A program made the translations under genes and the position numbers. The notes under the pieces are model-generated. The model ran no database searches, was not told the origin of the DNA, and worked only from the letters and a program-made list of their open reading frames with translations. Shown here piece by piece: positions 13,536-58,212 of a stretch of DNA of 64,000 nt. The stretch's first letter is position 1, and each line of letters starts with the position of its first letter. The stretch spans positions 160,001 to 224,000 of the forward strand of contig JAWABJ010000001.1 in the NCBI GenBank assembly GCA_038884755.1, given 5' to 3'. This DNA comes from Candidatus Norongarragalinales archaeon. GTDB lineage: Archaea > Micrarchaeota > Micrarchaeia > Norongarragalinales > Norongarragalinaceae.

Positions 13536-13566
13536 TTTTTGATAAAACTTTTTCGCAAAAAGTTTT
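13536..13566 (-). repeat. Hairpin plus A-tail element, family A
   Basis: Minus strand AAAACTTTTT-GCG-AAAAAGTTTT-ATC-AAAAA. Confidence 0.65.
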
Positions 13567-13596
13567 CTTTTTCCGAATCTTTCTTTGTTGAAGCGT

Positions 13597-13639
13597 TCTT
13601 TTCTTTACTCAATTTTTCTTTTCCTAAAAGAAAAATTGG
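13597..13639 (-). repeat. Hairpin plus purine tail element, family A
   Basis: Minus strand CCAATTTTTCTTTT-AGG-AAAAGAAAAATTG-AGT-AAAGAAAA, closely similar to 17834-17875. Confidence 0.8.
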
Positions 13640-13640
13640 A

Positions 13641-13731
13641 GGGCTCGGTAGTCGTAATCTCATCATTCCGTTTTTTGATCAAACTTTTTATAAAAAAGTT
13701 TGTCAGAGTCAAGCCTTTATCTTCATAGCCC
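13641..13731 (-). ncRNA. Box C/D sRNA candidate with a family-A hairpin between D' and C'
   Basis: GGGC/GCCC terminal stem; C ATGAAGA (13726-13720), 13-nt guide, D' CTGA (13706-13703), 36-nt insert, C' ATGATGA (13666-13660), 11-nt guide, D CCGA (13648-13645). Confidence 0.7.
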
Positions 13732-13779
13732 AATTACTTATTGAATATCTTAAACTATTATCTGTTTTCGTGGGTAGAA

Positions 13780-14703
13780 ATGATCGGTTTGCGCAAGGGC
13801 GACGGCAATTACGGCAAAAAGCCGAGCGAACGCACTCTTGACGAAAAGCTGCGCAAGGGCGTATTTGTTTTGGATAAGCCTTGCGGTCCTTCCTCCCACG
13901 AGGCTGCCGCGTTCGTGCGCAAGATTTTGGGTTTGAAGAAAGCTGGGCACAGCGGGACGCTGGATGCGAACGTTTCCGGCGTGCTGCCTGTTTTCCTCGA
14001 GGAGGCGACCAAGGCAGTACGGTATTTTCTCGGCGAGCGCAAGAAATACGTTTGCATAATGCGTTTGAACGAAAGGAAAAGTGCGAAGGAAATCGAAGAT
14101 GCTTTTTCGCATTTTAAAGGAAAAATCTACCAAAAGCCTCCTTTGGCGAGTGCTGTTGCTAAGAAACTGCGAGTGCGCGAAGTGTTCGGGTTGCGCGTGC
14201 TGGAAATCGACGGGAAGGACGTCTTGTTCGAGTGCGATGTGGAAGGCGGATTTTACGTGCGCAAGCTTTGCGCTGACGTGGGGGAGGTTTTGGGGTGCGG
14301 GGCGGCAATGCTGGAGCTGCGCAGGACTTACGCGGCCGGGTTTACCGAAGCGAAGGCGCATTCGCTGCAGGACTTGAGCGACGCGTTTTGGCTGTGGAAA
14401 GAGGTGGGAAACTCAAAAACGTTGGACGAGATGGTTTTCAATCTGGAAGACGTTTTGCATTTGAAGAAAGTCGTCGTGGACGATGGTGCGTTAAAACCAA
14501 TTTCCACCGGCGCGAACCTCGCGATTCCTGGCATAGTTGAAATGGACGATTCGATTGAAAAAGGCGAGAGCGTGCAAGTTTTGAGCGGAAAGGGAGAGGT
14601 AATCTGTTTTGCCAAAGCATTGTTCAGTTCGAAGGAAATAGCCGAGAAGGAAAGGAAGGGGCATGGTGGTTTGGCGTTCGACATCGAACGCGTTTTGCTT
14701 TGA
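13780..14703 (+). CDS. cbf5: H/ACA pseudouridine synthase Cbf5 (TruB family) with PUA domain
   Basis: LDKPCGPSSHE, GHSGTLD catalytic Asp, QKPPLASAV, ELRRT. Confidence 0.95.
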   Translation: MIGLRKGDGNYGKKPSERTLDEKLRKGVFVLDKPCGPSSHEAAAFVRKILGLKKAGHSGTLDANVSGVLPVFLEEATKAVRYFLGERKKYVCIMRLNERKSAKEIEDAFSHFKGKIYQKPPLASAVAKKLRVREVFGLRVLEIDGKDVLFECDVEGGFYVRKLCADVGEVLGCGAAMLELRRTYAAGFTEAKAHSLQDLSDAFWLWKEVGNSKTLDEMVFNLEDVLHLKKVVVDDGALKPISTGANLAIPGIVEMDDSIEKGESVQVLSGKGEVICFAKALFSSKEIAEKERKGHGGLAFDIERVLL

Positions 14704-14831
14704 GTTTTTTTGCGCATCGAAAGGGTTTTTAAATCGGTGTAGAATAGTGTTATACTGGAAAATTAAAGGCTCACGGAGCTCTCTGTTTTTCCCGAAGGTT
14801 TTTAACCGCGAGAAAGCAAATTCTTTCTTGC

Positions 14832-15027
14832 GCCGGGATGGCAGAGTGGTTAATGCGCACGCTTGGAAAGTCTTTTTCTGGTTGCTCTTTTTCGAGCGTA
14901 CCGAAAACTTCCCTTACAGCGTGTGGCCGAAAGGCCTCCTGAGTTCGAAAGCTTTTCTTTCTTTGCAAAAGAAAGAAAACCTTGGAAAAGAAAGAAAACG
15001 CGAGAGACGAGATTCTCAGTCCCGGCG
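14832..15027 (+). tRNA. tRNA-Ser(GGA) with two introns: 37/38 (14869-14917) and 59/60 (14950-15013)
   Basis: Acceptor GCCGGGA/TCCCGGC; anticodon arm CACGC-TTGGAA|A-GCGTG; long variable arm; T arm CTGAG-TTCGAA|T-CTCAG; TTCG/CGAG central helix. Confidence 0.9.
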
Positions 15028-15064
15028 CTTTCGCTTTACAATAGTTTAAACGGTGTCATCGAGT

Positions 15065-15724
15065 TTGGCTGACGACAAGTCTGTAAAGAAGGAACAAAAC
15101 GTAAGGACAGAGCAAAAGAAAAGCTCTTTTCAACCCCAGCCGCAGCTTCCTTCGAAACTCGTCAAGCGCAAGGACAAGGAGTCGAAAGACTTTCGCGGGA
15201 TAGTGCGCGTTGTAGGACGGGACGTTGACGGGCACTTGACTGTCGCCGAGTCGTTAAGGAAAGTGAAAGGGCTCGGGTACAATCTGGGGACCAACCTCGG
15301 CGGGATTGTTTCGACCAAACTCGGCATTCCTTTGAGTGAATTGATCGGAAACCTTTCCGAAGAGCAGTTCGTAAAGCTTGAAGATGTCGTGCGTTTTCCG
15401 CAGAATTATGGAGTGAAATCGTTTTTGCTCAACCGCCAGAAGGATTACGATTCTGGAGAGAATAAGCATTTGGTGATGTCCGACTTGACTTTCTCCCTGC
15501 GTCAGGATGTCGTGAGAGAACGGGATTCGAAGACCTACCGGGGATGGAGGCACGCGATCGGACAGAGAGTGCGCGGGCAGCACTCGCGCACTACCGGCAG
15601 GAGCGGAATGGCCGTGGGCGTTTTGAAGAAGGCGATCAAGGCACAGAAAGCCGCGGCAGCGACCGGCGCGCAGGAAAAGTCTTCCACCGCGCCAGCGGCT
15701 GCGAAGGAAGAGAAGAAAAAGTGA
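15065..15724 (+). CDS. rps13: 30S ribosomal protein uS13 with N- and C-terminal extensions
   Basis: FRGIVRVVGRDVDG, YRGWRHAIGQRVRGQHSRTTGR; start codon uncertain (15053 or 15065). Confidence 0.95.
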   Translation: MADDKSVKKEQNVRTEQKKSSFQPQPQLPSKLVKRKDKESKDFRGIVRVVGRDVDGHLTVAESLRKVKGLGYNLGTNLGGIVSTKLGIPLSELIGNLSEEQFVKLEDVVRFPQNYGVKSFLLNRQKDYDSGENKHLVMSDLTFSLRQDVVRERDSKTYRGWRHAIGQRVRGQHSRTTGRSGMAVGVLKKAIKAQKAAAATGAQEKSSTAPAAAKEEKKK

Positions 15725-15747
15725 TTTTTGCTTTTGAAGTGATTTGA

Positions 15748-16308
15748 ATGGGAGACCCTGTCAGGAAATCAAAGAAATTCGAAAAGCCTAAAAGACTGTG
15801 GGACAAGCCCAGAATCGAGGCGGAAAAGGCCTTGAGGAACGAATTCGGGCTGAAGAACGCGCGGGAATTGTGGAGAATGCAGACTTTGCTCAGGCGCATC
15901 AGGCGCGAGGCGCGGAGGCTTTTGAGCGGCAAGGGCTCGCAGGCCGAAGAGCGGGCGAAGAAACTCCTGTCGCGCGTGCAGCGGTTGTTTTTACAGAAGG
16001 CGGACGCGACGCTGGACGACTTGCTTTCGCTGAACGTCAAGGACATTTTGAGCCGAAGGCTGCAGAGCGTGGTGGTGCGAAAGGGTTTCGCGAAGACCAT
16101 GCATCAGGCCAGGCAGTTCATCACGCACGGGCACATTTCCATAGGCGGGAGGAAAGTTTCCGCGCCTTCGTACCTGGTTTCTTTCGACGAGGAATCGAAA
16201 GTGGAATGGTTCAAGAAGCCCGTTGCCGTCGAGCAAAAGCCGGTCGTTGCAGAAGCGGCCGAAGGCAAGGAAAAGGAGAAAGTTGAGAGCGTGAGTGCGA
16301 ATGGCTGA
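15748..16308 (+). CDS. rps4: 30S ribosomal protein uS4
   Basis: [31 protein letters not shown]. Confidence 0.97.
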
Positions 16309-16768
16309 AACGGCATCGCTTCCAAAGCAAGAGGAGATGCGCGAGAGGCGCAGTCATTTTGACGACCGCAGGGTTTTGCTTACCGAAGGGAAATGGGGGG
16401 TTGCTCACGTTTTCTCTTCTAAAAATGATACGATAATCACGATTACGGACTTGAGCGGCGCTGAAACGATTTCGACCGGAAGCGGAGGCATGATAGTCAA
16501 GAGCGACCGCGAAGAGGGAAGCCCTTACGCTGCTATGCAAGCCGCTTTCCGCGCTTCTGCCAAGGCGAAAGAACGCGGGGTTGTCGGAGTGCACGTGCGC
16601 GTTCGCGCGCCCGGCGGGCACCGCTCGAAAACTCCCGGCCCAGGCGCGCAGGCGGCGATACGCGCGTTGGCGAGAAGCGGGCTGCGAATAGGAAAAATAG
16701 AAGACGTCACTCCCTTGCCTACGGACACTACGAAGCGCAAGGGCGGAAAAAGGGGAAGGAGAGTTTAA
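16301..16768 (+). CDS. rps11: 30S ribosomal protein uS11
   Basis: [36 protein letters not shown]. Confidence 0.97.
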
Positions 16769-16780
16769 GGGGGATTTGCA

Positions 16781-17479
16781 ATGAAGGTTTTCAGCGAGGA
16801 CGAGAAGACTCTCGTGTTGGTTTCGGAAAAGGAAACTCCCGCGTTGTTGAACGCAATGCGCAGGGCGGTGATTTCCGAAATCCCAGCGATGGCAATCAGC
16901 GAAGTGGATTTTTACGAGAACAATTCCGCCTTGTTCAACGAGTATTTGGCGAACCGCATGGGCTTGATTCCCTTGAGCTGGGAGGAAGGTGTGGAAGACG
17001 ACGTGAAAATGTCATTTTCCTTGAACGCCGAGGCGGTCGAAGAGCCCAAGACCGTGTACAGCCGAGACCTGGTTTCTTCCGACGAGAAAATCAAGGTTTA
17101 TTCGGAAAACATTCCCATTGTAGTATTGAACAAGGGGCAAAAGTTGAGGCTGGAGGCTTTCGCGGTGAAAGGCACTGCGAAAACGCACGCGCGCTTCCAG
17201 AGTGCGTTGGCTTACTACGGGAAGGCAGGAGAGTTCAAGGCGGGAGAAAAGTGCAAGAAATGCTCTTCTCCCCTGGTTTCCTTTCCGGCAATAGCGGGAA
17301 AGAAAGACTTGCCAGAAAACAGCTTTCTCTGCGCCAATTGCTCCAAGCCAGATGGCGAGGGCAAAGAGTTTTTGTTTGTAGTCGAATCTTTCAACAACCT
17401 TTCGGCGAGAGAGCAGTACGAACGGGCGTTGAAAGTCATGGAGGAAAAAGCCAAGGCTTTGGAAAAAGAATTCAAGTGA
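16781..17479 (+). CDS. rpoD: RNA polymerase subunit D (Rpo3)
   Basis: NAMRRAVISEIP, NSALFNEYLANRMGLIPL; follows uS11. Confidence 0.93.
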   Translation: MKVFSEDEKTLVLVSEKETPALLNAMRRAVISEIPAMAISEVDFYENNSALFNEYLANRMGLIPLSWEEGVEDDVKMSFSLNAEAVEEPKTVYSRDLVSSDEKIKVYSENIPIVVLNKGQKLRLEAFAVKGTAKTHARFQSALAYYGKAGEFKAGEKCKKCSSPLVSFPAIAGKKDLPENSFLCANCSKPDGEGKEFLFVVESFNNLSAREQYERALKVMEEKAKALEKEFK

Positions 17480-17483
17480 GCGC

Positions 17484-17735
17484 ATGAGGGCGAGGGTTTT
17501 TCCCAACGCAAAAGAGTTTTGCGTTTCGTTCGGCGAAGGCATTTTGAAAGTGCGCGTTTGCGCGCCGGCCGAAGGAGGCCGGGCGAACAAAGAGCTCGTG
17601 CGGATGCTTTCAAAGCTGCTTGGGGTGAAGGTCGAGGTCGTCCGCGGCTTGAAGTCGCGGGATAAAGAGATTTTGTTCGAGGATTTGAGCGAAAAAGAGG
17701 TTGTGGAAAAGGTTAATTCCCTCTCAAGCCAATAA
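17484..17735 (+). CDS. DUF167 / UPF0235 (YggU-like) protein
   Basis: VRVCAPAEGGRANKELV..LLGV..VVRGLKSRDK. Confidence 0.85.
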   Translation: MRARVFPNAKEFCVSFGEGILKVRVCAPAEGGRANKELVRMLSKLLGVKVEVVRGLKSRDKEILFEDLSEKEVVEKVNSLSSQ

Positions 17736-17747
17736 GTTTGGTTCTGA

Positions 17748-17832
17748 GCAGGGGTGGCAGAGCCTGGTCAAATGCGCTAGCTTGAGGTGCTAGTCTCTTA
17801 GGAGTTCGGGGGTTCAAATCCCTCCCCCTGCA
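17748..17832 (+). tRNA. tRNA-Leu(GAG), no intron
   Basis: GCAGGGG/CCCCTGC acceptor; CTAGC-TTGAGGT-GCTAG anticodon arm; long variable arm; TTCAAAT T loop. Confidence 0.95.
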
Positions 17833-17875
17833 TTGAATTTTTCTTTTAGAAAAAGAAAAATTCAGTAAAGAAAAA
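17833..17875 (+). repeat. Family A element abutting the tRNA-Leu discriminator
   Basis: TTGAATTTTTCTTTT-AGA-AAAAGAAAAATTCA-GT-AAAGAAAAA; nearly identical to the tRNA-Gly 37/38 intron. Confidence 0.85.
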
Positions 17876-17905
17876 CGAAAATGTTCGAAAAGAGTTGGAA
17901 ACAAA

Positions 17906-18277
17906 ATGAAGAAATCCAAATTCAGAGGACCTGAAAGTTCCGAAGTCAAGGCGCTCGTTGCGTTTTTGGAAAAAACCGTGCGCAAGTCGCATTCGAGAGC
18001 GTGGGCCAGCGTAGCCTCGTTCATGCTGAAGCCCGCGCGCGTGAAGAAAGGCAAGGCGGTTAACTTGTACAAACTGGAAAAAATCGCGAAAGACGGGGAC
18101 GTGATAGTTATCCCGGGCGTTTTGCTTGGCGTGGGAGACTTAAAGAAGAAAATTACTGTTGCCGCATTCAAGGCAAGCGAGAGCGCGAGGGCCAAGCTCG
18201 GAAAAAATCTTGTTTCCATAAGGGCGCTGGCGGAGAAAAACCCAGAGGGAAAGAAAGTGAGGATAGTGATAGGCTGA
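17906..18277 (+). CDS. rpl18e: 50S ribosomal protein eL18
   Basis: VNLYKLEK, VIPGVLLGVG, ITVAAFKASESA, KNPEG. Confidence 0.93.
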   Translation: MKKSKFRGPESSEVKALVAFLEKTVRKSHSRAWASVASFMLKPARVKKGKAVNLYKLEKIAKDGDVIVIPGVLLGVGDLKKKITVAAFKASESARAKLGKNLVSIRALAEKNPEGKKVRIVIG

Positions 18278-18302
18278 TGTTTTTGAGGAAAGCGTGGTTT
18301 GA

Positions 18303-18725
18303 ATGATTGTGATAAACGGGGAGAAAGCGGTTTTCGGTCGCGTGCTGGCGTTTGCAGCCAAGAAGCTTCAGGAAGGAGAGGACGTGGTGGTCGTAAACGC
18401 GGAAAAGACGGTAATTTCCGGAAATCCAGAGCGGATAATAGCGCGTTATCACGCGAAGCGCGGGATATCCAACAAGGGCAATCCCGAGCACGCACCAAAA
18501 TTCCCGGTCCGCCCGGACTTGTTTTTGAAGTACATTTTAAGGGGAATGCTCCCGAAGAAAAAAGCTAGCGGGAAGAAGGCGAGGGAAAAGTTCAAGGCGT
18601 TTTTGGGAATGCCGAAGGAATTCGAAGGAAAGGCGCAAAAGTTTTACAAGACTTCCGAAGACTTGAGCGTAAGCTTCGTTTCGCTCGAGGAAATCTGCAA
18701 GAGGCTAGGCTGGAAGAGGGCTTGA
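18303..18725 (+). CDS. rpl13: 50S ribosomal protein uL13
   Basis: VVVNAEKTVISG, RPD..LRGMLP. Confidence 0.95.
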   Translation: MIVINGEKAVFGRVLAFAAKKLQEGEDVVVVNAEKTVISGNPERIIARYHAKRGISNKGNPEHAPKFPVRPDLFLKYILRGMLPKKKASGKKAREKFKAFLGMPKEFEGKAQKFYKTSEDLSVSFVSLEEICKRLGWKRA

Positions 18726-18747
18726 CTGTTGGAACGGTGTGTTGAAA

Positions 18748-19194
18748 ATGGCTGAAGATGCGGTGAAAAAGGAAGCTAAACCCAAGAAAATTCGAAAGAA
18801 AAAGCAGGTCGTGGAAAGGGGCAAGCGAAAGGAAGCGATAGCCCGCGCTTCAATCAAGGCAGGAAAGGGCGTGATTCGCGTTAACGGAATAGCGCTTACT
18901 GCGTTTCCCAACCCTTACGCCAGGCAAATCATGGCCGAGCCGCTGTCTTTCTTGGACCAGCAGGATTTCGACATAGACGTTTCGGTCCGCGGCGGGGGAG
19001 TGATGGGGCAGGCGCAGGCAGTGCGCACCGCAATAGCAAGAGCAATCCTGGCGTTCAAGAAGGGCAGCGAAGAGCTGAAAAAAGCGTTCGTCGATTACGA
19101 CCGGTTTATTCTTGTCGAAGACGCGAGGCGCGTGGAGCCCAAGAAGTTCAAGGGGCCAAAGGCGCGCGCTCGCTTTACTAAATCATACCGTTAA
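18748..19194 (+). CDS. rps9: 30S ribosomal protein uS9
   Basis: GKRKEAIARA, GGGVMGQAQAVRTAIAR, EPKKFKGPKARARFTKSYR. Confidence 0.97.
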   Translation: MAEDAVKKEAKPKKIRKKKQVVERGKRKEAIARASIKAGKGVIRVNGIALTAFPNPYARQIMAEPLSFLDQQDFDIDVSVRGGGVMGQAQAVRTAIARAILAFKKGSEELKKAFVDYDRFILVEDARRVEPKKFKGPKARARFTKSYR

Positions 19195-19212
19195 AATGGG
19201 GTGTTTGTGAAA

Positions 19213-19410
19213 ATGTTGATTCCCGTGCGTTGTTTTACTTGCGGCAAGCCAGTCGCCGAGTATTGGGAGTCTTTCGAAGAGCGCACTTCGAAAGGTGAGG
19301 ATGCAGGCAAGGTTTTAAGCGAATTGGGCTTGAACCGTTATTGCTGCAGGAGAATGTTCCTGGGGCAAGTGGACCTGATGGACGAAATCCTGCCCTACCA
19401 GAGGTTTTAA
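19213..19410 (+). CDS. rpoN: RNA polymerase subunit N (Rpo10)
   Basis: MLIPVRCFTCGK..RYCCRRM. Confidence 0.97.
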   Translation: MLIPVRCFTCGKPVAEYWESFEERTSKGEDAGKVLSELGLNRYCCRRMFLGQVDLMDEILPYQRF

Positions 19411-19439
19411 CTTTTTCTCGACACCCCATTAGTAGAGAT

Positions 19440-19512
19440 GGGGCTGTGGGGTAGCCTGGTATCCTGCATGGCTGGGGGCCATGCGACCTGAGTTCGAATC
19501 TCAGCAGCCCCA
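19440..19512 (+). tRNA. tRNA-Pro(GGG), no intron
   Basis: GGGGCTG/CAGCCCC; CATGG-CTGGGGG-CCATG; TTCGAAT. Confidence 0.95.
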
Positions 19513-19546
19513 CTGTTTTTTTTTCATGCCACCTGAGGCTTCAAAA

Positions 19547-20794: not shown

Positions 20795-21714
20795 GTTTCG
20801 TCGTCAAGCTCTTTCTTCGACTTCCAAAAGAAGAATCCTATAACGGCGAAGGTGATTGCTCCCGAAGTCCACTCGGGAATGTGCATTCCGAAAGCGTTCA
20901 AAATCATTATGCAACCCAAGAAAAGCACGGAGTACATTGCGCCGTTCTTCAAGTACCCGTATTTCTTTACCCGTTCGATGTTGCTTATGGTCAACTGGCG
21001 CACGGCAATTGCTCCCAATCCGCTTCCGATTATTATCAATGGCACAGAGAAAGTGAATGCGAACGCTCCAAGCACCCCGTCGATGGAGAACGTTGCGTCT
21101 ATGACTTCCAAGTACATTATCTTGCTCCAGTCGCTCAAGTGCGTTCCTTCGTGCATTAATTCCCTTTCCTTCATTTCAGCGTTTTGTTTGAAGCCATGGG
21201 TAATGAAAAAAGCCGTCGAGCCCACGACCGCCCCGAAAGCCATCATGTCGTTCTTTTGGAGTGCAAACCACGTGAGTACCGTAAGCAGAATTGCGACTAC
21301 GGTGTAGAACCACACGCCCCTCTTGTAAATTGGCTCTTCCCAACTCATTCCGAACTTCTTTTTCTCGAGGAAAAGCCAGTTCAACCCCAGGAAAACCATG
21401 AACACTCCCGCCATCATTAGCAGCACGGGTTTGCTTTGTTCTATCTGTTCTGCAACCGCCGGGTCTTCGCTCAAGGTTGCGGTGAAAGAGCCTTGAATGC
21501 CGAGGGAAGGGTTTGAAACGAATATTATGAACCACGGCAGCAAGCCCCTGACCAGGAACACGGCGATGAGCATTCCCCAAAGCAAAAACCACCTTTTCGC
21601 CTTTTCGCTCATCGTGTTCAAAACGTGGGCGTTTATGACCGCGTTGTCCACGCTCAGGATTAGCTCGAATACCGCCAATCCCAAAACAGCTAGAACTGCG
21701 GAAAAAACATCCAC
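20782..21714 (-). CDS. DUF475 / TerC-related membrane protein
   Basis: FELILSVDNAVINA, YLEVIDATFSIDGVLGAFA; start uncertain. Confidence 0.85.
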   Translation of the reverse strand: MDVFSAVLAVLGLAVFELILSVDNAVINAHVLNTMSEKAKRWFLLWGMLIAVFLVRGLLPWFIIFVSNPSLGIQGSFTATLSEDPAVAEQIEQSKPVLLMMAGVFMVFLGLNWLFLEKKKFGMSWEEPIYKRGVWFYTVVAILLTVLTWFALQKNDMMAFGAVVGSTAFFITHGFKQNAEMKERELMHEGTHLSDWSKIMYLEVIDATFSIDGVLGAFAFTFSVPLIIIGSGLGAIAVRQLTISNIERVKKYGYLKNGAMYSVLFLGCIMILNAFGMHIPEWTSGAITFAVIGFFFWKSKKELDDETHAS

Positions 21715-21803: not shown

Positions 21804-21985
21804 GCGGCGATGGTCTAGTGGTATGATCCGAGCCTTCCATTGAATTTTTCTTTTTTTTTACAAAAAAAGAAAAATTCAGTAAAGAAAAAACTTTCAGGAA
21901 AGCTTGAGGCCCGGGTTCGATAGGGGCGAAACTGCGTTTCTCCCTCTTCCTTTCGGAAAAGGTGCCGAAAATCCCGGTCGCCGCA
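21804..21985 (+). tRNA. tRNA-Gly(TCC) with two introns: 37/38 (21840-21900) and 59/60 (21922-21971)
   Basis: GCGGCGA/TCGCCGC; CGAGC-CTTCCA|A-GCTTG; CCGGG-TTCGAT|T-CCCGG with TTCG/CGAA central helix. Confidence 0.9.
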
Positions 21986-21995
21986 CTTTTTTTTT

Positions 21996-27032: not shown

Positions 27033-27048
27033 GCGGTTATGCAGAACT

Positions 27049-29160: not shown

Positions 29161-29323
29161 GGGCCTTTAGTATAGCCTGGATAGAATAGGGGCTTCCGAA
29201 GCCTCAGACAGGGGTTCGAAGACCGCCTTTTCTTTTTAGAAAAAGAAAATGCGGTCGGCCGAAAAGAAAACGGTCGTCAGTCTCAAAGAAGCGCGGACTA
29301 GAACGGAAATCCCCTAAGGCCCG
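29161..29323 (+). tRNA. tRNA-Arg(CCG) with an 89-nt intron at 59/60 (29221-29309)
   Basis: GGGCCTT/AAGGCCC; GGGGC-TTCCGAA-GCCTC; AGGGG-TTCGAA|T-CCCCT; TTCG/CGGA helix. Confidence 0.9.
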
Positions 29324-29405
29324 CTTTGCGCTAACCGGCGAGAGCTCAAGCTCGAGCTTTCGCAAGGTAGAGAATAAGAAACCCGCAGTGAAAATTATTT
29401 ATCAC

Positions 29406-29525
29406 GGGCCCGTGTGGTAATGGACAACCGGCGGGGCTTCGGACCCCGAGTTGCGCGTTCGAAGAACCTTTCTTTGCGAAAGAAAGCTTTGCCAAAGAAA
29501 GGCAGCGAAAATCGCGCCGGGCCCG
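29406..29525 (+). tRNA. tRNA-Arg(TCG) with a 48-nt intron at 59/60 (29464-29511)
   Basis: GGGCCCG/CGGGCCC; CGGGG-CTTCGGA-CCCCG; GCGCG-TTCGAA|T-CGCGC; TTCG/CGAA helix. Confidence 0.88.
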
Positions 29526-29526
29526 C

Positions 29527-29576
29527 TTAAACTTTCTTTTTTTTGCGAAAAAAGAAAGTTTAATCAAAGAAAAAGG
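29527..29576 (+). repeat. Family A element in the tRNA-Arg(TCG) trailer
   Basis: TTAAACTTTCTTTTTTT-GCG-AAAAAAGAAAGTTTAA-TC-AAAGAAAAAG. Confidence 0.8.
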
Positions 29577-50012: not shown

Positions 50013-50057
50013 GCACAACCCCCACGTGGGTTTGGAGCAGGTAGGACGCAAAACTTT

Positions 50058-50333: not shown

Positions 50334-50416
50334 CCAACCGACGTTTTCGTTTGAAAATAGCTTGCGCTTGTTTGCTACTCTTTTTGTGCAGGCACTCTTT
50401 TAATTGGTTCGCAAAG

Positions 50417-50492
50417 CGGGCCCGCCGCGATTTGAACGCGGGACCTTCCGCTTAGGAGGCAGATGCTCTCTTCCAGGCTGAGCTACGGGCCC
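50417..50492 (-). tRNA. tRNA-Arg(CCT), no intron
   Basis: GGGCCCG/CGGGCCC; TCTGC-CTCCTAA-GCGGA; TTCAAAT. Confidence 0.95.
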
Positions 50493-50534
50493 AAACTTTC
50501 TTTTTCGCAAAAAGAAAGTTTGATCAAAGAAAAA
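50493..50534 (+). repeat. Family A element abutting the tRNA-Arg(CCT) 5' end, antisense to the tRNA
   Basis: AAACTTTCTTTTT-CGC-AAAAAGAAAGTTT-GATC-AAAGAAAAA. Confidence 0.8.
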
Positions 50535-50617
50535 CGACGCAAAGAAAAACCAAAGGGAATTCCAGCCTATAAGAAACATGGCGGTTGGTTTTTATTTGCT
50601 TTTTGAATTCTGTATTC

Positions 50618-52681
50618 ATGCTAGCCGCCGAAGCCACGCAAATCCCGATAGTAGAAATAGGCGTGATAGTCTTGGCGGCGCTGTTTTTCGGGATAATCGC
50701 CTCGCGATTGCGCCTTCCCACTTCCATAGGCTACATAATTGCAGGCTTTCTCCTCGGCCCCCAAGTTTTTCATTTCCTGACGCCGAACGAGGGTATCGCG
50801 CAGCTGTTCGGCGAAATAGGCCTTTTGCTCTTGCTTTTCTATCTGGGTTTGGAATTGAGCATAAAGAAATTCAAGGAAAGCGGCGCCTTGGCGTCCATAA
50901 TAGCTTTCGTTGAAATGGGAATACCATTTTTGTTCTCTTTCCTCGTTGCACTCGCGTTCGGCTTTGGCTTTACCGAAGCGCTGGTCATAGGCGCGATGCT
51001 CACTGCGACAAGCACGGTCATGGTAACGAAATTCATGTTCGACCGGCGCATAGAAAAGGAGCCTGAATCGAGGCTGGGGATTTCCATTCTCGTCGTCGAA
51101 GACTTTTTCGCCATTCTCGTTTTGGCTTTCCTGTTCAGCATTTCCAACGCCGTTTCGTTCAAGCAAACGCTCTTGAATGGCGTTCTTTTCGTTGTCGCGA
51201 TGTTTTTCGTCGTAAGCCGCGTCACGCGCTTCGTATCGAGCTTTTTCGAGCGGCACGGGAAGACGAGCGTAATGACGCTCTTCGCCTTGGGCGTGGGCAT
51301 AATGGTCGCCTACTTCAGCTCTTACCTCGGGCTTACCATAGCGTTGGGCGCCTACTTCGCGGGTTTTGCGCTGACCGAAACGCCTTTCGGCGAGAGGGTG
51401 AAAAAGGAAATTGGCTTCATGCGCGAGTTTTTCATACTCTTCTTTTTCGTTGGCTTTGGAACTACGGTAACCACACCTTCTTCCGGCTCGCTCGTCCTAG
51501 TCTTCGCTCTAGTGGCTTTCTACATCCTCGCTAAAATCATCGCCTACGGGTTTTTCGCGACGGCGTTCGGCTTGGGCATGAACTCGGCAATAAAGCTCGG
51601 CATGATGATGATTCCCATAGGCGAGTTCAGTCTGATAATCGCGGCGGCTTCCGCGCCTTTCATGCGCAATGCCGGCGAAATAATCTCTATAGCGTTCCTC
51701 CTCACTATAGTTTCCACGCTGATTTCTCCCGTGCTTTTCGACAATTCCAAGCGCATAGCTGAATTAGTGTCGTCGTTGTACCCGAAAAAACTGCGCAAGT
51801 CGATAAACGCCTTGGGAAAGGAACTGCATTCGCTGGAAAAAGTTTCGCAAAACCCCGCGTTCCAAAACGAATTATCGCGGGCTTTGGAAAGCTTCGTTTT
51901 GAATTCGGTAGTGGCGTTGGCGATAGTCTACATGAGCTTCCTCGCTTCTTTCAACGTCGACCTGAGCTTCATTCCTTTCCTCCCTCCGGAAATTTCCATC
52001 AACGTCTTGATACTGCCTTTAGTTTTCTGGCCAATATACAAGGCAATCAATGACTTGAAGTTCATCGCTTACTCCGCAGTCTCGCAGTGGTCACGCCAGC
52101 ACTTTCCGTACTGGAAGAGGCACCACGACGCGGGTATTGCCGCGTCGGAAATAATCACTTCTTTCGTCCTTACACTGGCGGGTGTTTTCGCGTGCTTTCT
52201 CTTCTACTTTACTAGCACCGAGCTCTTGCTTGTCCCCCTTCTTTTCACGCTGCTCGCGCTCATGTACTTGAGCAAGAGCATTTACTCGCTGTTCGAACAG
52301 GCGGAAGATTTACAGGCGGTTGCCGAAAGCGGCGGCGTTTCGGGAAAGGAAGTGCTTTCCTTGAGCAGGGAACTGCGGATGCGCGCTCAGAAAATCGCCG
52401 AGTTGAACGAAGAGCGCGAAAAATCCTTGAGGGAAATCCGCGCGGCGCTGGGCGCGGGGAAAATGGCGAAAGCGCGCTCGGAAATGCAGCACTTCAAAAA
52501 GCGCGAGGCGGCAATCCTGGCAAAACTCGAAGGCGCGGAAAAACGATTGGAAAAGAAAGAATTCGCCGCGCTTTCGCGCGAGGAGACTGCCACGAAAAAA
52601 GCGCTGGAAAGTTATTTCCTTAAGCAAGCCCCGCGCATCCTAGGCGAAAAGCGCAAGTCTTCGAAAAAGCCCAAGCGTTGA
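50618..52681 (+). CDS. Cation:proton antiporter (CPA2/KefB-like) with extended C-terminus
   Basis: GYIIAGFLLGP, LFYLGLE, GISILVVEDFFA, GAYFAG, PIGEFSLII. Confidence 0.88.
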   Translation: MLAAEATQIPIVEIGVIVLAALFFGIIASRLRLPTSIGYIIAGFLLGPQVFHFLTPNEGIAQLFGEIGLLLLLFYLGLELSIKKFKESGALASIIAFVEMGIPFLFSFLVALAFGFGFTEALVIGAMLTATSTVMVTKFMFDRRIEKEPESRLGISILVVEDFFAILVLAFLFSISNAVSFKQTLLNGVLFVVAMFFVVSRVTRFVSSFFERHGKTSVMTLFALGVGIMVAYFSSYLGLTIALGAYFAGFALTETPFGERVKKEIGFMREFFILFFFVGFGTTVTTPSSGSLVLVFALVAFYILAKIIAYGFFATAFGLGMNSAIKLGMMMIPIGEFSLIIAAASAPFMRNAGEIISIAFLLTIVSTLISPVLFDNSKRIAELVSSLYPKKLRKSINALGKELHSLEKVSQNPAFQNELSRALESFVLNSVVALAIVYMSFLASFNVDLSFIPFLPPEISINVLILPLVFWPIYKAINDLKFIAYSAVSQWSRQHFPYWKRHHDAGIAASEIITSFVLTLAGVFACFLFYFTSTELLLVPLLFTLLALMYLSKSIYSLFEQAEDLQAVAESGGVSGKEVLSLSRELRMRAQKIAELNEEREKSLREIRAALGAGKMAKARSEMQHFKKREAAILAKLEGAEKRLEKKEFAALSREETATKKALESYFLKQAPRILGEKRKSSKKPKR

Positions 52682-52714
52682 ACTAATAAACTCCAGTGAA
52701 CAAAATTTTGTTTA

Positions 52715-52766
52715 GTGATGATAACTGAACAACCTCTGAACCGATGATGAGGCTGATAGCGTCTGA
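52715..52766 (+). ncRNA. Box C/D sRNA candidate, canonical archaeal layout
   Basis: C GTGATGA (52715-21), guide TAACTGAACAACCT, D' CTGA (52736-39), C' ATGATGA (52744-50), guide GGCTGATAGCGT, D CTGA (52763-66). Confidence 0.85.
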
Positions 52767-52767
52767 T

Positions 52768-52793
52768 CCAGGAGAAACTACGTTTCTCCCTGG
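52768..52793 (+). repeat. Family B hairpin directly after the sRNA
   Basis: CCAGGAGAAAC-TAC-GTTTCTCCCTGG; 17 of 18 nt match to 21928-21945 in the tRNA-Gly T-loop intron. Confidence 0.65.
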
Positions 52794-52842
52794 AACCCTC
52801 TTCCTGCGACGAAATTAATACTCCCGACTTCATTCTTTTTTC

Positions 52843-53535
52843 ATGCCGGATTTTGACCAACAGGAAATTTGGGAGAAAGAGCATTCCAAACCCTTAGTCT
52901 TGCCTCAGATGAGTAAAGAAGATGCTTCTGGGGGTGTTGTCGAATTCTACTCATGGCTTGCAAGAAATAGTCTTACAAGCGAATTGTCTGGAGTAGAAAT
53001 GGGGTGTGGAAAGGGAAGAAACTGCTTGTGGTTGGCAAAACAAGGAGTCAAAATGACTGGTTTCGACTTTTCGAAAAATGCAATTTCAGAAGCTCGAAAA
53101 AAAGCTGGAAAAACGGGCTTACAGAATGCGTTTTTTTTAGTTCACGATGCCACCAAAAAATGGCCTTTCGATAACGAGGCTTTCGACATTGGTATAGACT
53201 GCTTTGCATCAACCGACATAGATTCTCTTGAAGGAAGAACCTTCGCGAGGGATGAATTCAAGCGAGTAATCAAGAAAAGCGGCTTTCTGCTCGTGTATAC
53301 ACTCTCGACTGACGACGAATTTCACAAGCAAATGGTTGAAGAATATCCTGCAGGAGAAAGGAACAGTTTCAGGCATCCGCAAACCGGAAAATTCGAGAAA
53401 ATATTCGACAGAAACGAGATTTTTGATTTTTACCGAAATTTCAAACTAATCGAAGAGTGCAGGATAGAGAAGGATGAGGTCTTTTTTGGAAAAAGCTATC
53501 GATGCAAGCATTTTTGGCTGGTATTTCAAAAGTAG
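52843..53535 (+). CDS. Class I SAM-dependent methyltransferase
   Basis: EMGCGKGRN, GFDFSKNAI; AT-richer codon usage than neighbours. Confidence 0.85.
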   Translation: MPDFDQQEIWEKEHSKPLVLPQMSKEDASGGVVEFYSWLARNSLTSELSGVEMGCGKGRNCLWLAKQGVKMTGFDFSKNAISEARKKAGKTGLQNAFFLVHDATKKWPFDNEAFDIGIDCFASTDIDSLEGRTFARDEFKRVIKKSGFLLVYTLSTDDEFHKQMVEEYPAGERNSFRHPQTGKFEKIFDRNEIFDFYRNFKLIEECRIEKDEVFFGKSYRCKHFWLVFQK

Positions 53536-53549
53536 GTCTTTGTGGTTAA

Positions 53550-53831
53550 ATGCACTACCGGATTTTGGTTGAAGGCAGGGTGCAGGGCGTCGGGTATAGG
53601 GCTTTCGTGAAAAGCGCCGCCTGCGCGCTGGGAGTAAAAGGTTTTGTTCGTAATTTGGAAGACGGGCGGGTGGAAATAAACTGCGAGTGCGGCGAGAGCG
53701 TTTTGAAAGATTTTTTGAAGAAACTCGAGCGCAAGAGCGAAGGCTTCGCCGGAATTCACGTTGAGCGGCTGGCTGTGGAAAAAACCGCTTCCCCTCGAGA
53801 AGGCTTTTCTTCGTTCGAAATACGGTTTTGA
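53550..53831 (+). CDS. acyP: Acylphosphatase
   Basis: [21 protein letters not shown]. Confidence 0.93.
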
Positions 53832-53910
53832 GTCTTTTTTTGCGCAAGAACTGGTTTTTATACCTCGGCAATTACGTTTATCTTAACGGTTTTTCCACGG
53901 AGGGGATTCG

Positions 53911-56900
53911 GTGCAGGAACGCGCGTTTTTCGCCTTGTTTTCGATTATGATTTTGAGCGGGCTTGTTTTCGCCGCCTCTTCCACGCCAATCCCCGAAAAA
54001 AAGCTTTTCGAAACCAACGACATGCTGTCAGTCCAGTTTCCGCAAAGCGCCTCGTACGAAATCAAGGACGGGAACAAGCTTTACTTCAACGAGCCGGTAA
54101 AAGAAGTTTACCTGCATTATTTCTCGGGCGGAAGCGAAACGAGGCAGACGCTTTACAAGGTCGGGCGCATTGATGTTTGGCCGAAATTCGAAATGCTGGT
54201 TTTCGACAACACTTCGCAGTCGACGATGGTCGTTTTGAAAGACAAGCGCACGACTGTGCAGACGGCCGTGCGCTTCAGGGCGGTTTTCTACGAAACTTCC
54301 GTTTCTTCTGCAGCACCAGCGCAGGACTCTCCGGTCACAACCCCTTCCGCAGTCTGTCCTTTCGTTTACGGGTTTAAGAAAGACGGGGCAATAGCCGGCT
54401 TCAGGCTCAGCGACAACGGAACCGCTAAAGACCTGAAGACCGTGGTTTTCGGTGAAACGGATGCGGTCGATTACACCCTCCTGTGGCCTTCGGGCGAAAG
54501 CACGGTGAAGAAATTCAACGTAAAGAGAATAGAACTCTTGACTGCCACGCAAGGCAACGCGAAGAAGGAAGTTTCCGACACCAAAACCTCGTACTCGTTC
54601 GCTTCGCCCGTTATTATCCTGGTCACTCCCGAGAACGGGAAACAATTCGTGGCTGCAGTAAAGAAAATGACTTTCTCGTCCAAATCGAGCGTGGAAAAGG
54701 CGTTCCAGTTCGGCGCTCCTGACGTGGGCAACGTCAAGACCGAATACACTACCGGCGCTTTGGCAGTCCAATCGCGCGAAAAGCCGTTTTCGTTCAATTT
54801 GGTTGAAGACCAGCGGGTTTCTTCCTTCGACTGGGACCCTTCGAGCGCCTCGTGCTATCCAGTTTTCGTCGAGGGCGCGGAAAAGCCAGTTTGGGTGAGG
54901 GACTTGAGTTGGGAGAGCGCGCCTTCGTACGCCGGTTCGAGAGCCGGGAACGCGCAAGGCTGCGCCGCGCAGTTGGGAAGGTGCATTACCGAAACGACCG
55001 CCAACCTTTACAAGCTTAAGTTTTCTTCCGAAACTAAAGTCACGCTGGTTTCGTGCAACGTGCTTCAAGACAATCCCGTTGCGAAAGCCAAACTCGGCGA
55101 AGTTGAATTCGATTTGGTCGCGCTGTTCGACAAGAAGCCCGAGTTCGTTTTCGACGGGGCTAAGTTCGAATTCAAGTATTCGTTCAGGCAAGGCAACGCG
55201 AAAGACTTCGGAATCAACAACGGCGTTTGGCACGTGGTTTACGACCCTGCTGCCTTCGATTACTACCACTCTTTGAACAAGAACGGCGGCGTGCCTTCTG
55301 CAGTGCCGCGCCACGAGGACGAGGCTTACGCGCCTCAAAACCACTACTGCCCTAGCGCCGGCGTGAATTCCTACACCCTAATGAACAGCGGGGATTATCT
55401 CGCCAGAATGTGGATTGCCGGCACGCAAGGCGATTTGGTTTTGAGCGAGAGCCTCGTGCGCTTGGTCCACTCCCCCTCCACCTTCGGCCAGTTCCTGCTC
55501 GCACACCGCTCTTCCGACGTTGTGCAGGAAAACTTCCAATTCCGCACGAACTACGTTGAAGCGCGGAACGCGCCGAAAGCGCTTTTGTTCAACAATCTTT
55601 TATACTCGGTTTTTTCCTTGTCTCCAGCAACCTCCAGCTCTGCCGCCGGTTTCCTTGCAAGCGTAAAGGATGCTGCAACCAACAACGCGGTTTTAGACGT
55701 CGTGAATCCGGGCGCGTTCGGAAGCGTAGGAAAAATTTCTTTGAGGAACGTTTTCTACACCGGATACAAGATTTCCTTGAAATCAAAAGACGACAAGTTT
55801 GAAGGGGTTGCTTTTACCATTCTCCAGCCAAAGTCTGCCGGAGCTCCAGGCGCCGATTGCGAATCTTCATTCTTCAACCCGTCGGCTCAGTCGAGCAAAA
55901 AGTGTTTTGACGCCGCGCCGTTCTGCTGGGGGTATTTGAGCGGCAGCGGAACTCCCTTCGGAAACTATCGCTGTTACCCTGTTTCCGCAGGCAACGGCTA
56001 TCCTGCCGCGGACGCTTACGCATGCAAGGGAACGGTTTATTCCGACCTGAACGCGCAGACGCGAGAGCACGGGACCGTGTATTTGAAGTACGCCGAAGGC
56101 AAAGGGCATTGCTCCAACAACCAGCGGGCTGAAGAGTTGATTAAAGACGGCAGTTGCAAGAAAACGCCTTTGGAAAACATTTCTTACGTCGTAACCAAAG
56201 ACGGCAAGGAAATGACTTACAAAGTGAAAGTGCTGGACTGCTCTGCAAGGTATTCCGACGCGAACGCTGGCGGAGCCGGCGGTAGGGACAGGCCGCCTGC
56301 GGCCGGAACCGGAAGGGCGTCCATTCCCGCACTCGAATCTTCAGGCGGCCTTTCGGTGAAAACCCCCGCCCAGAAGGTGAAAGAATGCCGCAGCCAAGGC
56401 GCGGGCTTCGACTGCAGGAACGTGAACGCTTGCGACCCTGCCTCGATAAAACGCGGCTTGTGTCCGGGCGGTGACGACAACGTGTGCTGCAAGGCAAAAG
56501 GACAGGATTCCGAAAAGTGCGAAACCCTTCCTGTTTCCGAGTGCAAGAAACAACCTTCGTGCGAAGTGAAAAGCTCCGGAGGCGTAGATTCTTGCGTCCC
56601 GAAGGCGTCTTCCTCGGAAACTTGCGAAACCCTTTCACCCTCCGAATGCCGCAAGAATTCGAAGTGCGTGGTAATACCGACGACAACCTACGGCAACGCT
56701 TGCATTTCGAAATCAAACGCACCGTCGTGCTCTTCGATAGGCGTTTCGCGATGTAGCTCGTACGAATACTGCGAGGTTATAGACACTACCTACGGCAAAG
56801 CGTGCGTCGAAAAATCGGCTGCAACGCCGAAGCCTCCAAAAACCTGGAACCTGCCTGACGGCAAAACCTGTTCCGACATTCTCAAGCAACAGGATTGCGT

Positions 56901-57462
56901 GAAGTACTACCAGTGCGATTGGACTAGAGACCAGTACGGCGTTTGGTCTTGCGACGTGAAAGCCGGAAACGCCCGCGACTCGTGCGAGGCCGTGGGAGGC
57001 TGGAGCTGCAACGCCGCCTCTGCCTGCGTGCCTTCGACCGCTGACAAGCGCGGGGCGGGAACGTGCCCGTACGGGACAGTGTGCTGCCAGCCGCTCAAAT
57101 CCCTGCCTTCAGGCGAAACCTGCTACTCCATAAGCCCGTCGCTTTGCTTGCAGTACCGCTCTTGCGAACTGATAGACGCGTCTTTCTACGGCAAAGCATG
57201 CGTGCCCAAAACCGCACCGAAAGGCTCTTTGTTCCTACCCGCAAGCAAAAGCTGCTCTTCCATAAGTGAAACCGATTGCCTGAAGTACGTGGAATGCACT
57301 TTGCAGTACAAGTTCGGCACATCCATTTGCGTGACTAAAACTGGCTACTGGAAACTGCCTGCTGGAAAAACCTGCAGCAGCATAAGCAATTCGGAGTGCA
57401 ATTACTACAGCAAGTGCAAGCTTGCAAGCACGGTAGGCGGGACTTTCTGCCAGGAAAAGTGA
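53911..57462 (+). CDS. Large secreted protein with C-terminal Cys-rich repeats
   Basis: Signal peptide; repeats LP.G.TC..I...C..Y..C and YG(K/N)AC; no C-terminal TM. Confidence 0.75.
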   Translation: MQERAFFALFSIMILSGLVFAASSTPIPEKKLFETNDMLSVQFPQSASYEIKDGNKLYFNEPVKEVYLHYFSGGSETRQTLYKVGRIDVWPKFEMLVFDNTSQSTMVVLKDKRTTVQTAVRFRAVFYETSVSSAAPAQDSPVTTPSAVCPFVYGFKKDGAIAGFRLSDNGTAKDLKTVVFGETDAVDYTLLWPSGESTVKKFNVKRIELLTATQGNAKKEVSDTKTSYSFASPVIILVTPENGKQFVAAVKKMTFSSKSSVEKAFQFGAPDVGNVKTEYTTGALAVQSREKPFSFNLVEDQRVSSFDWDPSSASCYPVFVEGAEKPVWVRDLSWESAPSYAGSRAGNAQGCAAQLGRCITETTANLYKLKFSSETKVTLVSCNVLQDNPVAKAKLGEVEFDLVALFDKKPEFVFDGAKFEFKYSFRQGNAKDFGINNGVWHVVYDPAAFDYYHSLNKNGGVPSAVPRHEDEAYAPQNHYCPSAGVNSYTLMNSGDYLARMWIAGTQGDLVLSESLVRLVHSPSTFGQFLLAHRSSDVVQENFQFRTNYVEARNAPKALLFNNLLYSVFSLSPATSSSAAGFLASVKDAATNNAVLDVVNPGAFGSVGKISLRNVFYTGYKISLKSKDDKFEGVAFTILQPKSAGAPGADCESSFFNPSAQSSKKCFDAAPFCWGYLSGSGTPFGNYRCYPVSAGNGYPAADAYACKGTVYSDLNAQTREHGTVYLKYAEGKGHCSNNQRAEELIKDGSCKKTPLENISYVVTKDGKEMTYKVKVLDCSARYSDANAGGAGGRDRPPAAGTGRASIPALESSGGLSVKTPAQKVKECRSQGAGFDCRNVNACDPASIKRGLCPGGDDNVCCKAKGQDSEKCETLPVSECKKQPSCEVKSSGGVDSCVPKASSSETCETLSPSECRKNSKCVVIPTTTYGNACISKSNAPSCSSIGVSRCSSYEYCEVIDTTYGKACVEKSAATPKPPKTWNLPDGKTCSDILKQQDCVKYYQCDWTRDQYGVWSCDVKAGNARDSCEAVGGWSCNAASACVPSTADKRGAGTCPYGTVCCQPLKSLPSGETCYSISPSLCLQYRSCELIDASFYGKACVPKTAPKGSLFLPASKSCSSISETDCLKYVECTLQYKFGTSICVTKTGYWKLPAGKTCSSISNSECNYYSKCKLASTVGGTFCQEK

Positions 57463-57468
57463 GTTGCA

Positions 57469-57930
57469 ATGGGCAGCACCCGCTTGTTTCTGTTGGTTTT
57501 ACTTTTTTCCGCGGTCCTCTTCGCAGGCTGCGTTTCCAGCCAAAACCCAGCGGAAAGACAGGTCCAGAGTTCGGAAAACGCGCTGGAACTAGAGCGTTTT
57601 GTTGAAACGCAGGAAGAGCTGGACGCCTTCGACCAGGAATCTTTCTCCGAGTCCGAGAAAAAAATCTTGGAGGCAAACCAAGCGTACTTGGATTTCATTG
57701 GCGAGGCTGGAAAACTCAACAACCTCGCGTTCGACTGCGCAAATTTCGAGCTCTACCAGAAAAACCTCGACACCCTCCAGAACGCGATTGATGTAGGATT
57801 GCAGGCTGCAGGCGGACTGGGCGAGGGAAAGAAAACCGCTTGGAACGAATACTTTTTCGGCCTGCAGATGGAGAAAGACTCCGCGCAAAGCGACTTGGAC
57901 GAATTGTGCGGCGAGGAAACAAACTCTTAA
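57469..57930 (+). CDS. Acidic helical lipoprotein-like protein
   Basis: Lipobox-like LFAGC after a hydrophobic stretch. Confidence 0.65.
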   Translation: MGSTRLFLLVLLFSAVLFAGCVSSQNPAERQVQSSENALELERFVETQEELDAFDQESFSESEKKILEANQAYLDFIGEAGKLNNLAFDCANFELYQKNLDTLQNAIDVGLQAAGGLGEGKKTAWNEYFFGLQMEKDSAQSDLDELCGEETNS

Positions 57931-58085
57931 AAGCCCGGTCCGACAAAATCTTTTTACGGAGATTGGAATGAACGGCGGTTTACTTCATCACTGTTTCTAG
58001 AAAGCCTTTAGTTAGTGCAAACTCCGTTGAAAATGTTTTTTGCGTTGCTGGCGGGAAACTCCCAGTTTCCAGCTTACGCAGTTAT

Positions 58086-58212
58086 GGCGCAGATGGTGTA
58101 GTGGTTAGCATCGGGGCTTGTGGTGGACTTCTTTCTTTTGGAAAAGAAAGACCTCCACTAGAAAGAAAACCGCAATCAGCCCTTGACCCGAGTTCGAATC
58201 TCGGTCTGCGCC
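58086..58212 (+). tRNA. tRNA-His(GTG) with encoded G-1 and a 54-nt intron at 37/38 (58124-58177)
   Basis: G-GCGCAGA/TCTGCGC-C; GGGGC-TTGTGG|A-GCCCT; BHB with central helix TTGT/GCAA and outer GG/CC pairs. Confidence 0.92.

Follow-up and report, generated by a model that had tools for sequence, protein, structure and literature searches.

How introns arrive in the tRNA and rRNA genes of archaea is an open question, and the triplex-type repeats dispersed in bacterial genomes have no known mover or role. Both questions are raised by a stretch of 64,000 nucleotides from a Candidatus Norongarragalinales archaeon of the Micrarchaeota (the window, G000:C1:160001-224000 of the source genome G000), in which a short repeat, family A, recurs at tRNA genes. 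A reading of the sequence alone had listed 11 copies and had taken them for a non-autonomous mobile element that is found only in and beside non-coding RNA (ncRNA) genes and acts as tRNA introns. Both questions become testable here, as one identifiable repeat stands at the 5' end of most G000 introns, close relatives differ in whether a site is filled or empty, and the splicing endonuclease EndA is of a characterised type; family A may reveal how archaea acquire new introns.

Abundance and location of family A

A relaxed scan of the whole source genome (927 kb, 93%-complete) for a hairpin with a paired purine arm followed by a second purine tract returned 49 copies of family A. Exactly 11 of them lie in the window, and these are the copies of the sequence-only reading, whose coordinates and strands stand. 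When the 123 kb of non-coding DNA were shuffled locally by dinucleotides 20 times, each round gave between zero and two hits; three whole-genome shuffles gave one or two and the reversed genome four, so chance A/T-rich hairpins are not the source of the 49.

For the location of the copies, 933 open reading frames (ORFs) from own calls served as the gene set; the names cbf5, pdhA, rpl19e and rps14 used for genes in this analysis are presumed. The 45 tRNA genes were found by spliced alignment against tRNAs of relatives, and the coordinates of rRNA and RNase P were taken from Rfam. Standard tools recover three of the eight tRNA genes of the window. ARAGORN, run at a low threshold with long introns allowed, gave mostly false calls and was dropped for tRNA finding.

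The genes for tRNA, rRNA and RNase P with their surroundings occupy 17.8 kb, or 1.9% of the genome, and 37 of the 49 hits lie in them or at most 70 nt away. Another 11 are in other spacers (one inside the split 23S gene, three at a C/D-like locus, five after stop codons and two weak ones) and one is in a coding sequence. A family A copy is present at 27 of 45 tRNA genes, as against 6 of 350 protein-gene ends followed by free space (Fisher p 3e-24, a value overstated like all p-values here, as copies and genomes are not independent). This indicates that family A is not an ordinary terminator, which should have been equally common at protein-gene ends, yet is not confined to ncRNA. Neither this outcome nor an equal yield from shuffled sequence, the two refuting results named in the sequence-only reading, was obtained. 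The enrichment proposed from the sequence is therefore strong, but the word "only" does not hold in view of the weak copies, the copy in a coding sequence and six copies located 1-11 nt downstream of a protein stop codon, the window copy at 13536 included. The enrichment at stable RNA genes is compatible either with active targeting or with selective survival.

Most RNA-associated copies (32 of 37) are in sense orientation, as are all six trailer copies and five of the six copies behind stop codons. The five antisense RNA-associated copies comprise two leader copies and three of a distinct subtype within introns, some of which form an inward-facing pair with a sense copy. Trailer copies start 0-1 nt past the tRNA; those in leaders lie on the opposite strand and directly adjoin nucleotide 1. 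An exact linker is common to a copy at another locus in 18 of the 49 copies, across tRNA introns, trailers, rRNA and mRNA ends.

Family A units as predicted introns

G000 harbors 38 tRNA introns in 30 genes, and 24 of these introns hold a family A unit. Their removal restores canonical tRNAs, the spliced products being recognised as such, and in rRNA the restored sequence is given by empty alleles in relatives. Four rRNA insertions of 47-64 nt, one of them in 16S and three in 23S, consist of a unit plus a tail, and all have a complete central helix (4/4) of the bulge-helix-bulge (BHB) motif. Among the 20 family A introns of tRNA genes at canonical sites, tallied on fixed 37/38 and 59/60 registers with 5 of the 38 G000 introns at other or unresolved sites excluded, this helix is complete in 11 and has at least three of four pairs in 19 (0.6 expected from shuffled introns). 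In the window the hosts first named were confirmed, namely the 59/60 introns of Ser-GGA, Arg-CCG and Arg-TCG, the 37/38 introns of Gly-TCC and His, the Leu and Arg-TCG trailers and the antisense Arg-CCT leader.

Of 26 sense introns, 24 have the outer stem of the unit starting no more than 2 nt from the 5' splice site. Random placement would give 6.4 such coincidences and the most lenient null 17.8; stem extension accepted wobble pairs and halts at the intron start, which favors small distances. The same position was observed in 12 of 17 cases in relatives. On the 3' side, sense introns carry a variable tail with a median length of 10 nt, which contains the partner of the BHB helix. The view of the units as tRNA introns is supported by BHB junctions and by the presence of EndA and RtcB, but most introns are a unit plus a 3' tail and not a unit alone.

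The EndA of G000 (388 amino acids) matches the epsilon2 enzyme of ARMAN-2 over its full length (4FZ2, E 2e-125), and RtcB is encoded as well. The full-length epsilon2 EndA of ARMAN-2 is reported to cut relaxed BHB motifs (Fujishima et al. 2011, PMC3239211, partial text). Judged from sequence and predicted pairing, the family A inserts are predicted BHB introns of the relaxed type. In a comparison with one RNA and two DNA-type sequencing runs, the only RNA match to the rRNA operon was a single 41-nt piece from another organism, and no spliced junction was seen.

For the insertion in RNase P RNA, the best BHB motif (4,2,2) among several hundred registers was not significant, and this copy is probably retained in a variable loop. 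The same loop holds a different repeat, twice, in the relative G002 (L131, L302).

Architecture of the unit

The unit measures 36-52 nt and consists of a pyrimidine arm, a loop, a purine arm, a linker and a mirror purine arm. The last part had been described as a duplicated purine tail. It is instead a mirror image of the purine arm: the A-runs that separate the G from the linker on its two sides are equal in 26 of 41 unique G000 copies (11.5 by permutation) and in 29 of 50 copies of relatives (15.1 expected), whereas two tests for direct duplication of the purine tract were both at chance. Where tracts are asymmetric, the mirror fits better in six of nine cases in G000, with two for the direct copy and one tie, and in four of seven in relatives, again with two direct and one tie. 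The His copy of the window contains such a tract, which is an exact mirror (10/10) and a poor direct copy (6/10).

Among 41 copies, 21 show a G-to-G distance of 14 nt. The first loop is short; the most frequent subtypes have a linker of 6-8 nt, and in other subtypes it extends to 12-15 nt. Across 109 unique copies of the Micrarchaeota group, the run lengths of all three tracts covary, with 84, 64 and 60 matches against 33-36 expected. Pairs 2 and 3 of the outer stem are Watson-Crick in 68 and 66 of 84 cases (21-23 expected), and all four pair types occur. By its sequence layout, family A is an A/T-rich design of the class II (purine-motif) intrastrand triplex. A purine-motif triplex cannot form in RNA (PMC4666352, partial text). 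The predicted fold would act in DNA, on the non-template strand for sense copies.

Tandem expansion of the linker-plus-tail part of the unit was seen in the Leu-TAA and Thr-CGT introns (G000:C1 ~567950 and ~381150).

Turnover among relatives

Comparison of orthologous tRNA genes, as proposed with the 11 copies, revealed presence and absence: Gly-TCC, Arg-CCG, Arg-TCG and His are each intronless in at least one genome of the genus. The tRNA sets of these relatives are partial (16-35 genes each) and, as they were recovered via Rfam matches, biased to intron-poor genes. The rRNA insertions have clean empty sites in relatives with no target duplication, and each of the four is absent in some relatives. 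G002, with 16S exons 96.7% identical to those of G000, lacks the 16S intron and one 23S intron, carries a second 23S intron almost unchanged and has a different subtype at the third site.

In the leader of tRNA Val-GAC (G000:C1 ~246275 and its orthologues in G001 and G002), an antisense copy separates the tRNA from a gene that lies upstream on the same strand. This copy is preserved with compensatory changes and, as RNA, would be arranged like a pyrimidine-motif triple helix immediately 5' of the RNase P site.

Range across archaea and bacteria

The strict pattern was found in 27 of 41 genomes of an order sample. A looser pattern matched 37 of the phylum's 151 genomes and left 114 without a match. 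In two distant element-rich genomes, 19 of the 24 copies printed out lie in tRNA introns in sense orientation, as judged by eye. A scan of GTDB genomes returned at least 129 loci, in Clostridia, Selenomonadales, the candidate phyla radiation (CPR), Nitrospirota, ANME-1, Woesearchaeota and Micrarchaeota, and four bacteria carry 118-238 copies of the design. Among 80 named GTDB loci, those in or beside a tRNA gene are six of six in Micrarchaeota, none of 14 in ANME-1/Methanosarcinales, one of six in other archaea and one of 54 in bacteria; the tRNA templates were from Micrarchaeota, so bacterial tRNAs are possibly under-called. As bacterial and ANME-1 copies lie away from tRNAs whereas Micrarchaeota copies lie at them, the design is a general dispersed repeat with a special refuge in the Micrarchaeota lineage. 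Bacterial and archaeal copies may be either homologous or convergent.

In two bacterial genomes the unit forms the inward-facing ends of longer repeats, and in five regions of two bacteria such pairs enclose non-coding DNA or unrelated ORFs. The Megamonas genome G045 (L424-L426) carries many copies of a non-coding repeat of ~410 nt with the unit as both inward-facing ends. A scan of viral sequences with a loose pattern gave 121 loci, mostly weak matches, and no cassette.

Search for a mover

The families searched for as mobilisers were Y1 transposase/TnpA, DUF559, GIY-YIG, reverse transcriptase and a four-helix-bundle protein (PF01797, PF04480, PF01541, PF00078 and PF05635). PF01797 (Y1 HUH transposase) was found in none of five genomes of the genus and does not track the pattern: it is present in 4 of the 27 genomes with the pattern and in 5 of the 14 that lack it. 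Reverse transcriptase was detected in two of five element-rich genomes and not in G000, G037 or G052. Thus, among the enzymes put forward as candidates from the sequence alone, RtcB was found in G000, but TnpA and reverse transcriptase were not.

A DUF559 gene is flanked by G/C-rich triplex repeats on one contig (L230, G022). This contig looks bacterial, and G003 and G026 each have two different full-length 16S genes, which points to possible bin contamination. In several genomes of the order, ORFs of ~230-300 amino acids with a C-terminal DUF559/Vsr-like domain stand directly upstream of a short basic ORF, presumably L41e-like (L231, L233, L234). The short ORF contains hairpin insertions of 30-40 nt in G033, G031 and G027 (L231, L234, L235), absent in G013 (L233). 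The G033 insertion shows, by eye, an in-frame stop and a 4-bp BHB-like helix; these insertions are possible mRNA introns.

Origin of the insertions

Family A is probably a non-autonomous DNA mini-element with one precise end. It would insert without duplication at loops or stem ends of genes that are both structured and highly transcribed, and would persist wherever it is neutralised by EndA, by RNase P, by RNase Z or by lying behind a stop codon. The element would be copied at the DNA level, because leader copies are antisense and bacterial copies sit away from tRNAs, without target duplication and probably from folded single-stranded DNA, by an enzyme or a repair or replication event not encoded next to it. 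At its pyrimidine end the element would meet a loop or stem end of a structured gene in an exact join, the other end bearing a short variable tail. Where this tail pairs with four exon bases, a relaxed BHB motif may arise, which epsilon2 EndA would excise and RtcB religate, so that the insertion would persist as a new intron. In leaders, trailers, spacers, the RNase P loop and behind stop codons, copies could survive without splicing, and elsewhere they would be purged. Established introns may later swap subtypes and gather further repeats. The mobile element first proposed for stable RNA loci is supported in this form by the enrichment, by presence and absence without target duplication and by the same subtypes at unrelated RNA loci, but not by a mobilising enzyme.

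Besides the overstated p-values, several observations weigh against this mini-element reading. No mobiliser was found in G000 among the five families, DDE transposases, TnpB and integrases not having been searched for, and four bacteria with many copies of the A/T form likewise yielded no DUF559. Strict BHB motifs (helix 4/4 plus inner stem) are present in only 7 of 20 family A introns, which fits the relaxed motifs cut by the ARMAN-2 EndA (PMC3239211, partial text). A direct copy explains asymmetric purine tracts better in two of nine cases in G000, two of seven in relatives and eight of 14 in a cross-domain set collected by a fixed pattern, and the long-linker subtypes exceed the 1-6-nt loops of the published class II triplex search. 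Two large families of the phylum are nearly empty (1 of 46 and 0 of 25 genomes). Presence and absence between relatives would fit loss as well as gain. The Ser-GGA 59/60 site is interrupted across several genera of the order, by family A subtypes or unrelated content, and G000, G003 and G004 share a Tyr 37/38 copy that is preserved with compensatory changes. These patterns indicate that some host introns are old, their content having been exchanged or maintained, and such old hosts fit function or repeated conversion as well as selfish spread.

Conversion is the core of one rival explanation, in which short homologies would let gene conversion or template switching copy a whole intron from one RNA gene into another, as in Thermoproteales; the unit would be a passenger whose unstable structure promotes the events, with no dedicated enzyme. 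One subtype in the introns of different tRNAs, identical trailers after paralogous tRNA-Ala genes, the same junction on either strand of the acceptor stem and the lack of any of the five enzyme families in G000 suit this explanation, as does the association of TMECO with local instability (PMC4666352, partial text). However, members of one subtype are flanked 5' by unrelated sequence, differ in their 3' tails and also occur in rRNA and behind stop codons, and bacteria carry the design in large numbers with no tRNA beside 53 of 54 loci. Whole-intron copying is considered unlikely, although it deserves more weight than the other rivals. A benefit to the host is a weaker candidate still. The unit might aid processing by EndA, RNase Z or RNase P or stabilise RNA ends, or antisense leader copies might form a pyrimidine-motif RNA triple helix, of which MALAT1 is an example, before the RNase P site. 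The sense bias, the location at processing sites and the compensatory conservation at the Tyr intron and the Val-GAC leader would agree with such a role; orthologous genes manage without the unit, most of the phylum lacks it, another repeat has inserted into family A three times, and the sense layout is the purine motif, which cannot form in RNA (PMC4666352, partial text).

Spread at the RNA level, with RtcB ligating excised introns into EndA-cut RNAs (reverse splicing) and reverse transcription fixing the product, is very improbable. The unit begins at the 5' splice site, both enzymes of the splicing pathway are present and two of the five element-rich genomes encode reverse transcriptases, but G000, G037 and G052 do not, and neither antisense leader copies nor copies in bacteria are expected from this route. 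There is hardly any chance that family A represents ordinary U-rich terminators or chance A/T-rich hairpins. The sense orientation of post-stop and trailer copies would fit a terminator, but the shuffles and the rate at protein-gene ends rule this out as a general explanation, and most copies lie inside transcripts.

The mini-element reading can be extended to a bolder claim, which is put forward as a doubtful possibility: a new kind of mobile element, itself the substrate as single-stranded DNA folded into a triplex, with one exact and one ragged end, which an unknown enzyme common to bacteria and archaea would move without target duplication and which would make BHB introns de novo in Micrarchaeota tRNA and rRNA genes. 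If true, no donor sequence for the gain of introns in archaea would have been named before family A, and the origin of introns would be linked to the unexplained BoxC/triplex repeats.

Features of the window and other repeats

The features of the window are compiled in Table 1. The short ORF beside the copy at 13536 is presumably rpl14e. The putative C/D small RNA named in the sequence-only reading has box-like motifs, but no Rfam match above threshold, no convincing target and no match in 40 relatives were found.

Table 1. Family A copies and their host genes in the window (numbering of the 64,000-nucleotide stretch)
Feature	Position	Strand	Remarks
Family A copy, A-only variant	13536..13568	-	antisense, 3 nt after stop codon of short ORF
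Family A copy	13597..13639	-	directly 3' of C/D-like RNA
C/D-box-like RNA, putative	13642..13730	-	box motifs and terminal stem
Family A copy	13670..13702	-	between D'-like and C'-like boxes
tRNA-Ser(GGA)	14832..15028	+	37/38 intron 14869-14917 (non-A), 59/60 intron 14950-15013
Family A unit	14950..14998	+	begins at 5' splice site of Ser 59/60 intron; BHB central helix 4/4
tRNA-Leu(GAG)	17748..17832	+	intronless
Family A unit, Leu trailer	17833..17875	+	abuts tRNA 3' end
tRNA-Gly(TCC)	21804..21986	+	37/38 intron 21840-21900; 59/60 intron 21922-21971 of repeat family B
Family A unit	21840..21890	+	begins at Gly 5' splice site; helix 3/4; G001 and G003 orthologues intronless
tRNA-Arg(CCG)	29161..29324	+	59/60 intron 29221-29309; G004 orthologue intronless
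Family A unit	29221..29270	+	begins at Arg(CCG) 5' splice site; helix 4/4
tRNA-Arg(TCG)	29406..29526	+	59/60 intron 29464-29511; G004 orthologue intronless
Family A unit	29464..29502	+	begins at Arg(TCG) 5' splice site; helix 4/4
Family A unit, Arg(TCG) trailer	29527..29576	+	
tRNA-Arg(CCT)	50416..50492	-	intronless
Family A unit, Arg(CCT) leader	50493..50534	+	strand opposite tRNA; pyrimidine end abuts nucleotide 1; absent in G003 and G004
tRNA-His(GTG)	58087..58213	+	37/38 intron 58124-58177; G003 intronless, G004 with unrelated 22-nt intron
Family A unit	58124..58169	+	begins at His 5' splice site; helix 4/4

Two further repeats were recognised. Family B has the opposite triplex order (purine arm, loop, pyrimidine arm, second pyrimidine tract) and occurs in T-loop introns, in tRNA trailers and behind stop codons (window positions 21922-21971, 52772 and 58226; G000 C1 and C2). 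Family C, a double hairpin of ~55 nt, interrupts family A copies in three cases, each insertion lying between T residues with no duplication (G000:C2 ~66490 and ~90700, and the Thr-TGT intron of G001, L223); the G002 orthologue is empty.

A group I intron was located by Rfam near the 3' end of the 16S gene (L130, G000:C1 678900-688400), and group I site SSU/1498 has been reported for Micrarchaeota (PMC6125680). The rRNA operon of G000 contains further long introns of 200-740 nt, some with ORFs. At G000:C1 ~13080-13220 on the minus strand, a tRNA-Ile(UAU) gene carries two introns, one with family A; the UAU anticodon of tRNA-Ile has been reported for ARMAN-2 (PMC3239211, partial text).

Comparison with known systems

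No description of family A was found in the main texts of the open-licence literature. The closest structural relatives are BoxC, PIT and TMECO (Holder et al. 2015, PMC4666352, partial text), which share the pyrimidine-purine-purine order, the hairpin with a mirror arm, the dispersed and patchy occurrence among close relatives, at times as inverted pairs, and the lack of a known mover. Family A is A/T-rich with a self-complementary linker of 6-15 nt, whereas those repeats are G/C-rich with 9-nt consensus stems and a 3-nt second loop, and it was on these features that an assignment to BoxC/TMECO proper was rejected. Family A is also concentrated in tRNA and rRNA introns, whereas the word "tRNA" occurs 0 times in PMC4666352.

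The BHB introns of ARMAN-2 (Fujishima et al. 2011, PMC3239211, partial text) resemble those of G000 in their positions (37/38, 53/54 and 59/60), the relaxed BHB motif and the full-length epsilon2 EndA. No shared repeat is named in the available part of that paper, whereas here 24 of 38 tRNA introns, and four rRNA introns as well, have their 5' part formed by one repeat family. In Thermoproteales, tRNA intron transposition (Fujishima et al. 2010, as cited in the available parts of PMC4033280 and bioRxiv 10.64898/2026.10.13.758758) likewise placed related intron sequences in different tRNA types, but the family A unit is smaller than the intron, can lie on either strand, and exists in bacteria and at sites that are not introns. 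Copying, mobile elements and reverse transcription were tested in Asgard archaea, and no general mechanism by which introns arrive emerged from the available part of that preprint (bioRxiv 10.64898/2026.10.13.758758).

Miniature inverted-repeat transposable elements (MITEs) and REP/RAYT repeats, by definitions drawn partly from PMC4666352, are likewise short, non-coding, dispersed and structured. Unlike MITEs, single family A units have neither terminal inverted repeats nor a target duplication, and in contrast to REP/RAYT and IS200-IS605 systems no Y1 transposase was found in G000 or its genus. The triplex structural class and the relaxed BHB introns of Micrarchaeota are each known; no account that combines the two was found in the open-licence literature.

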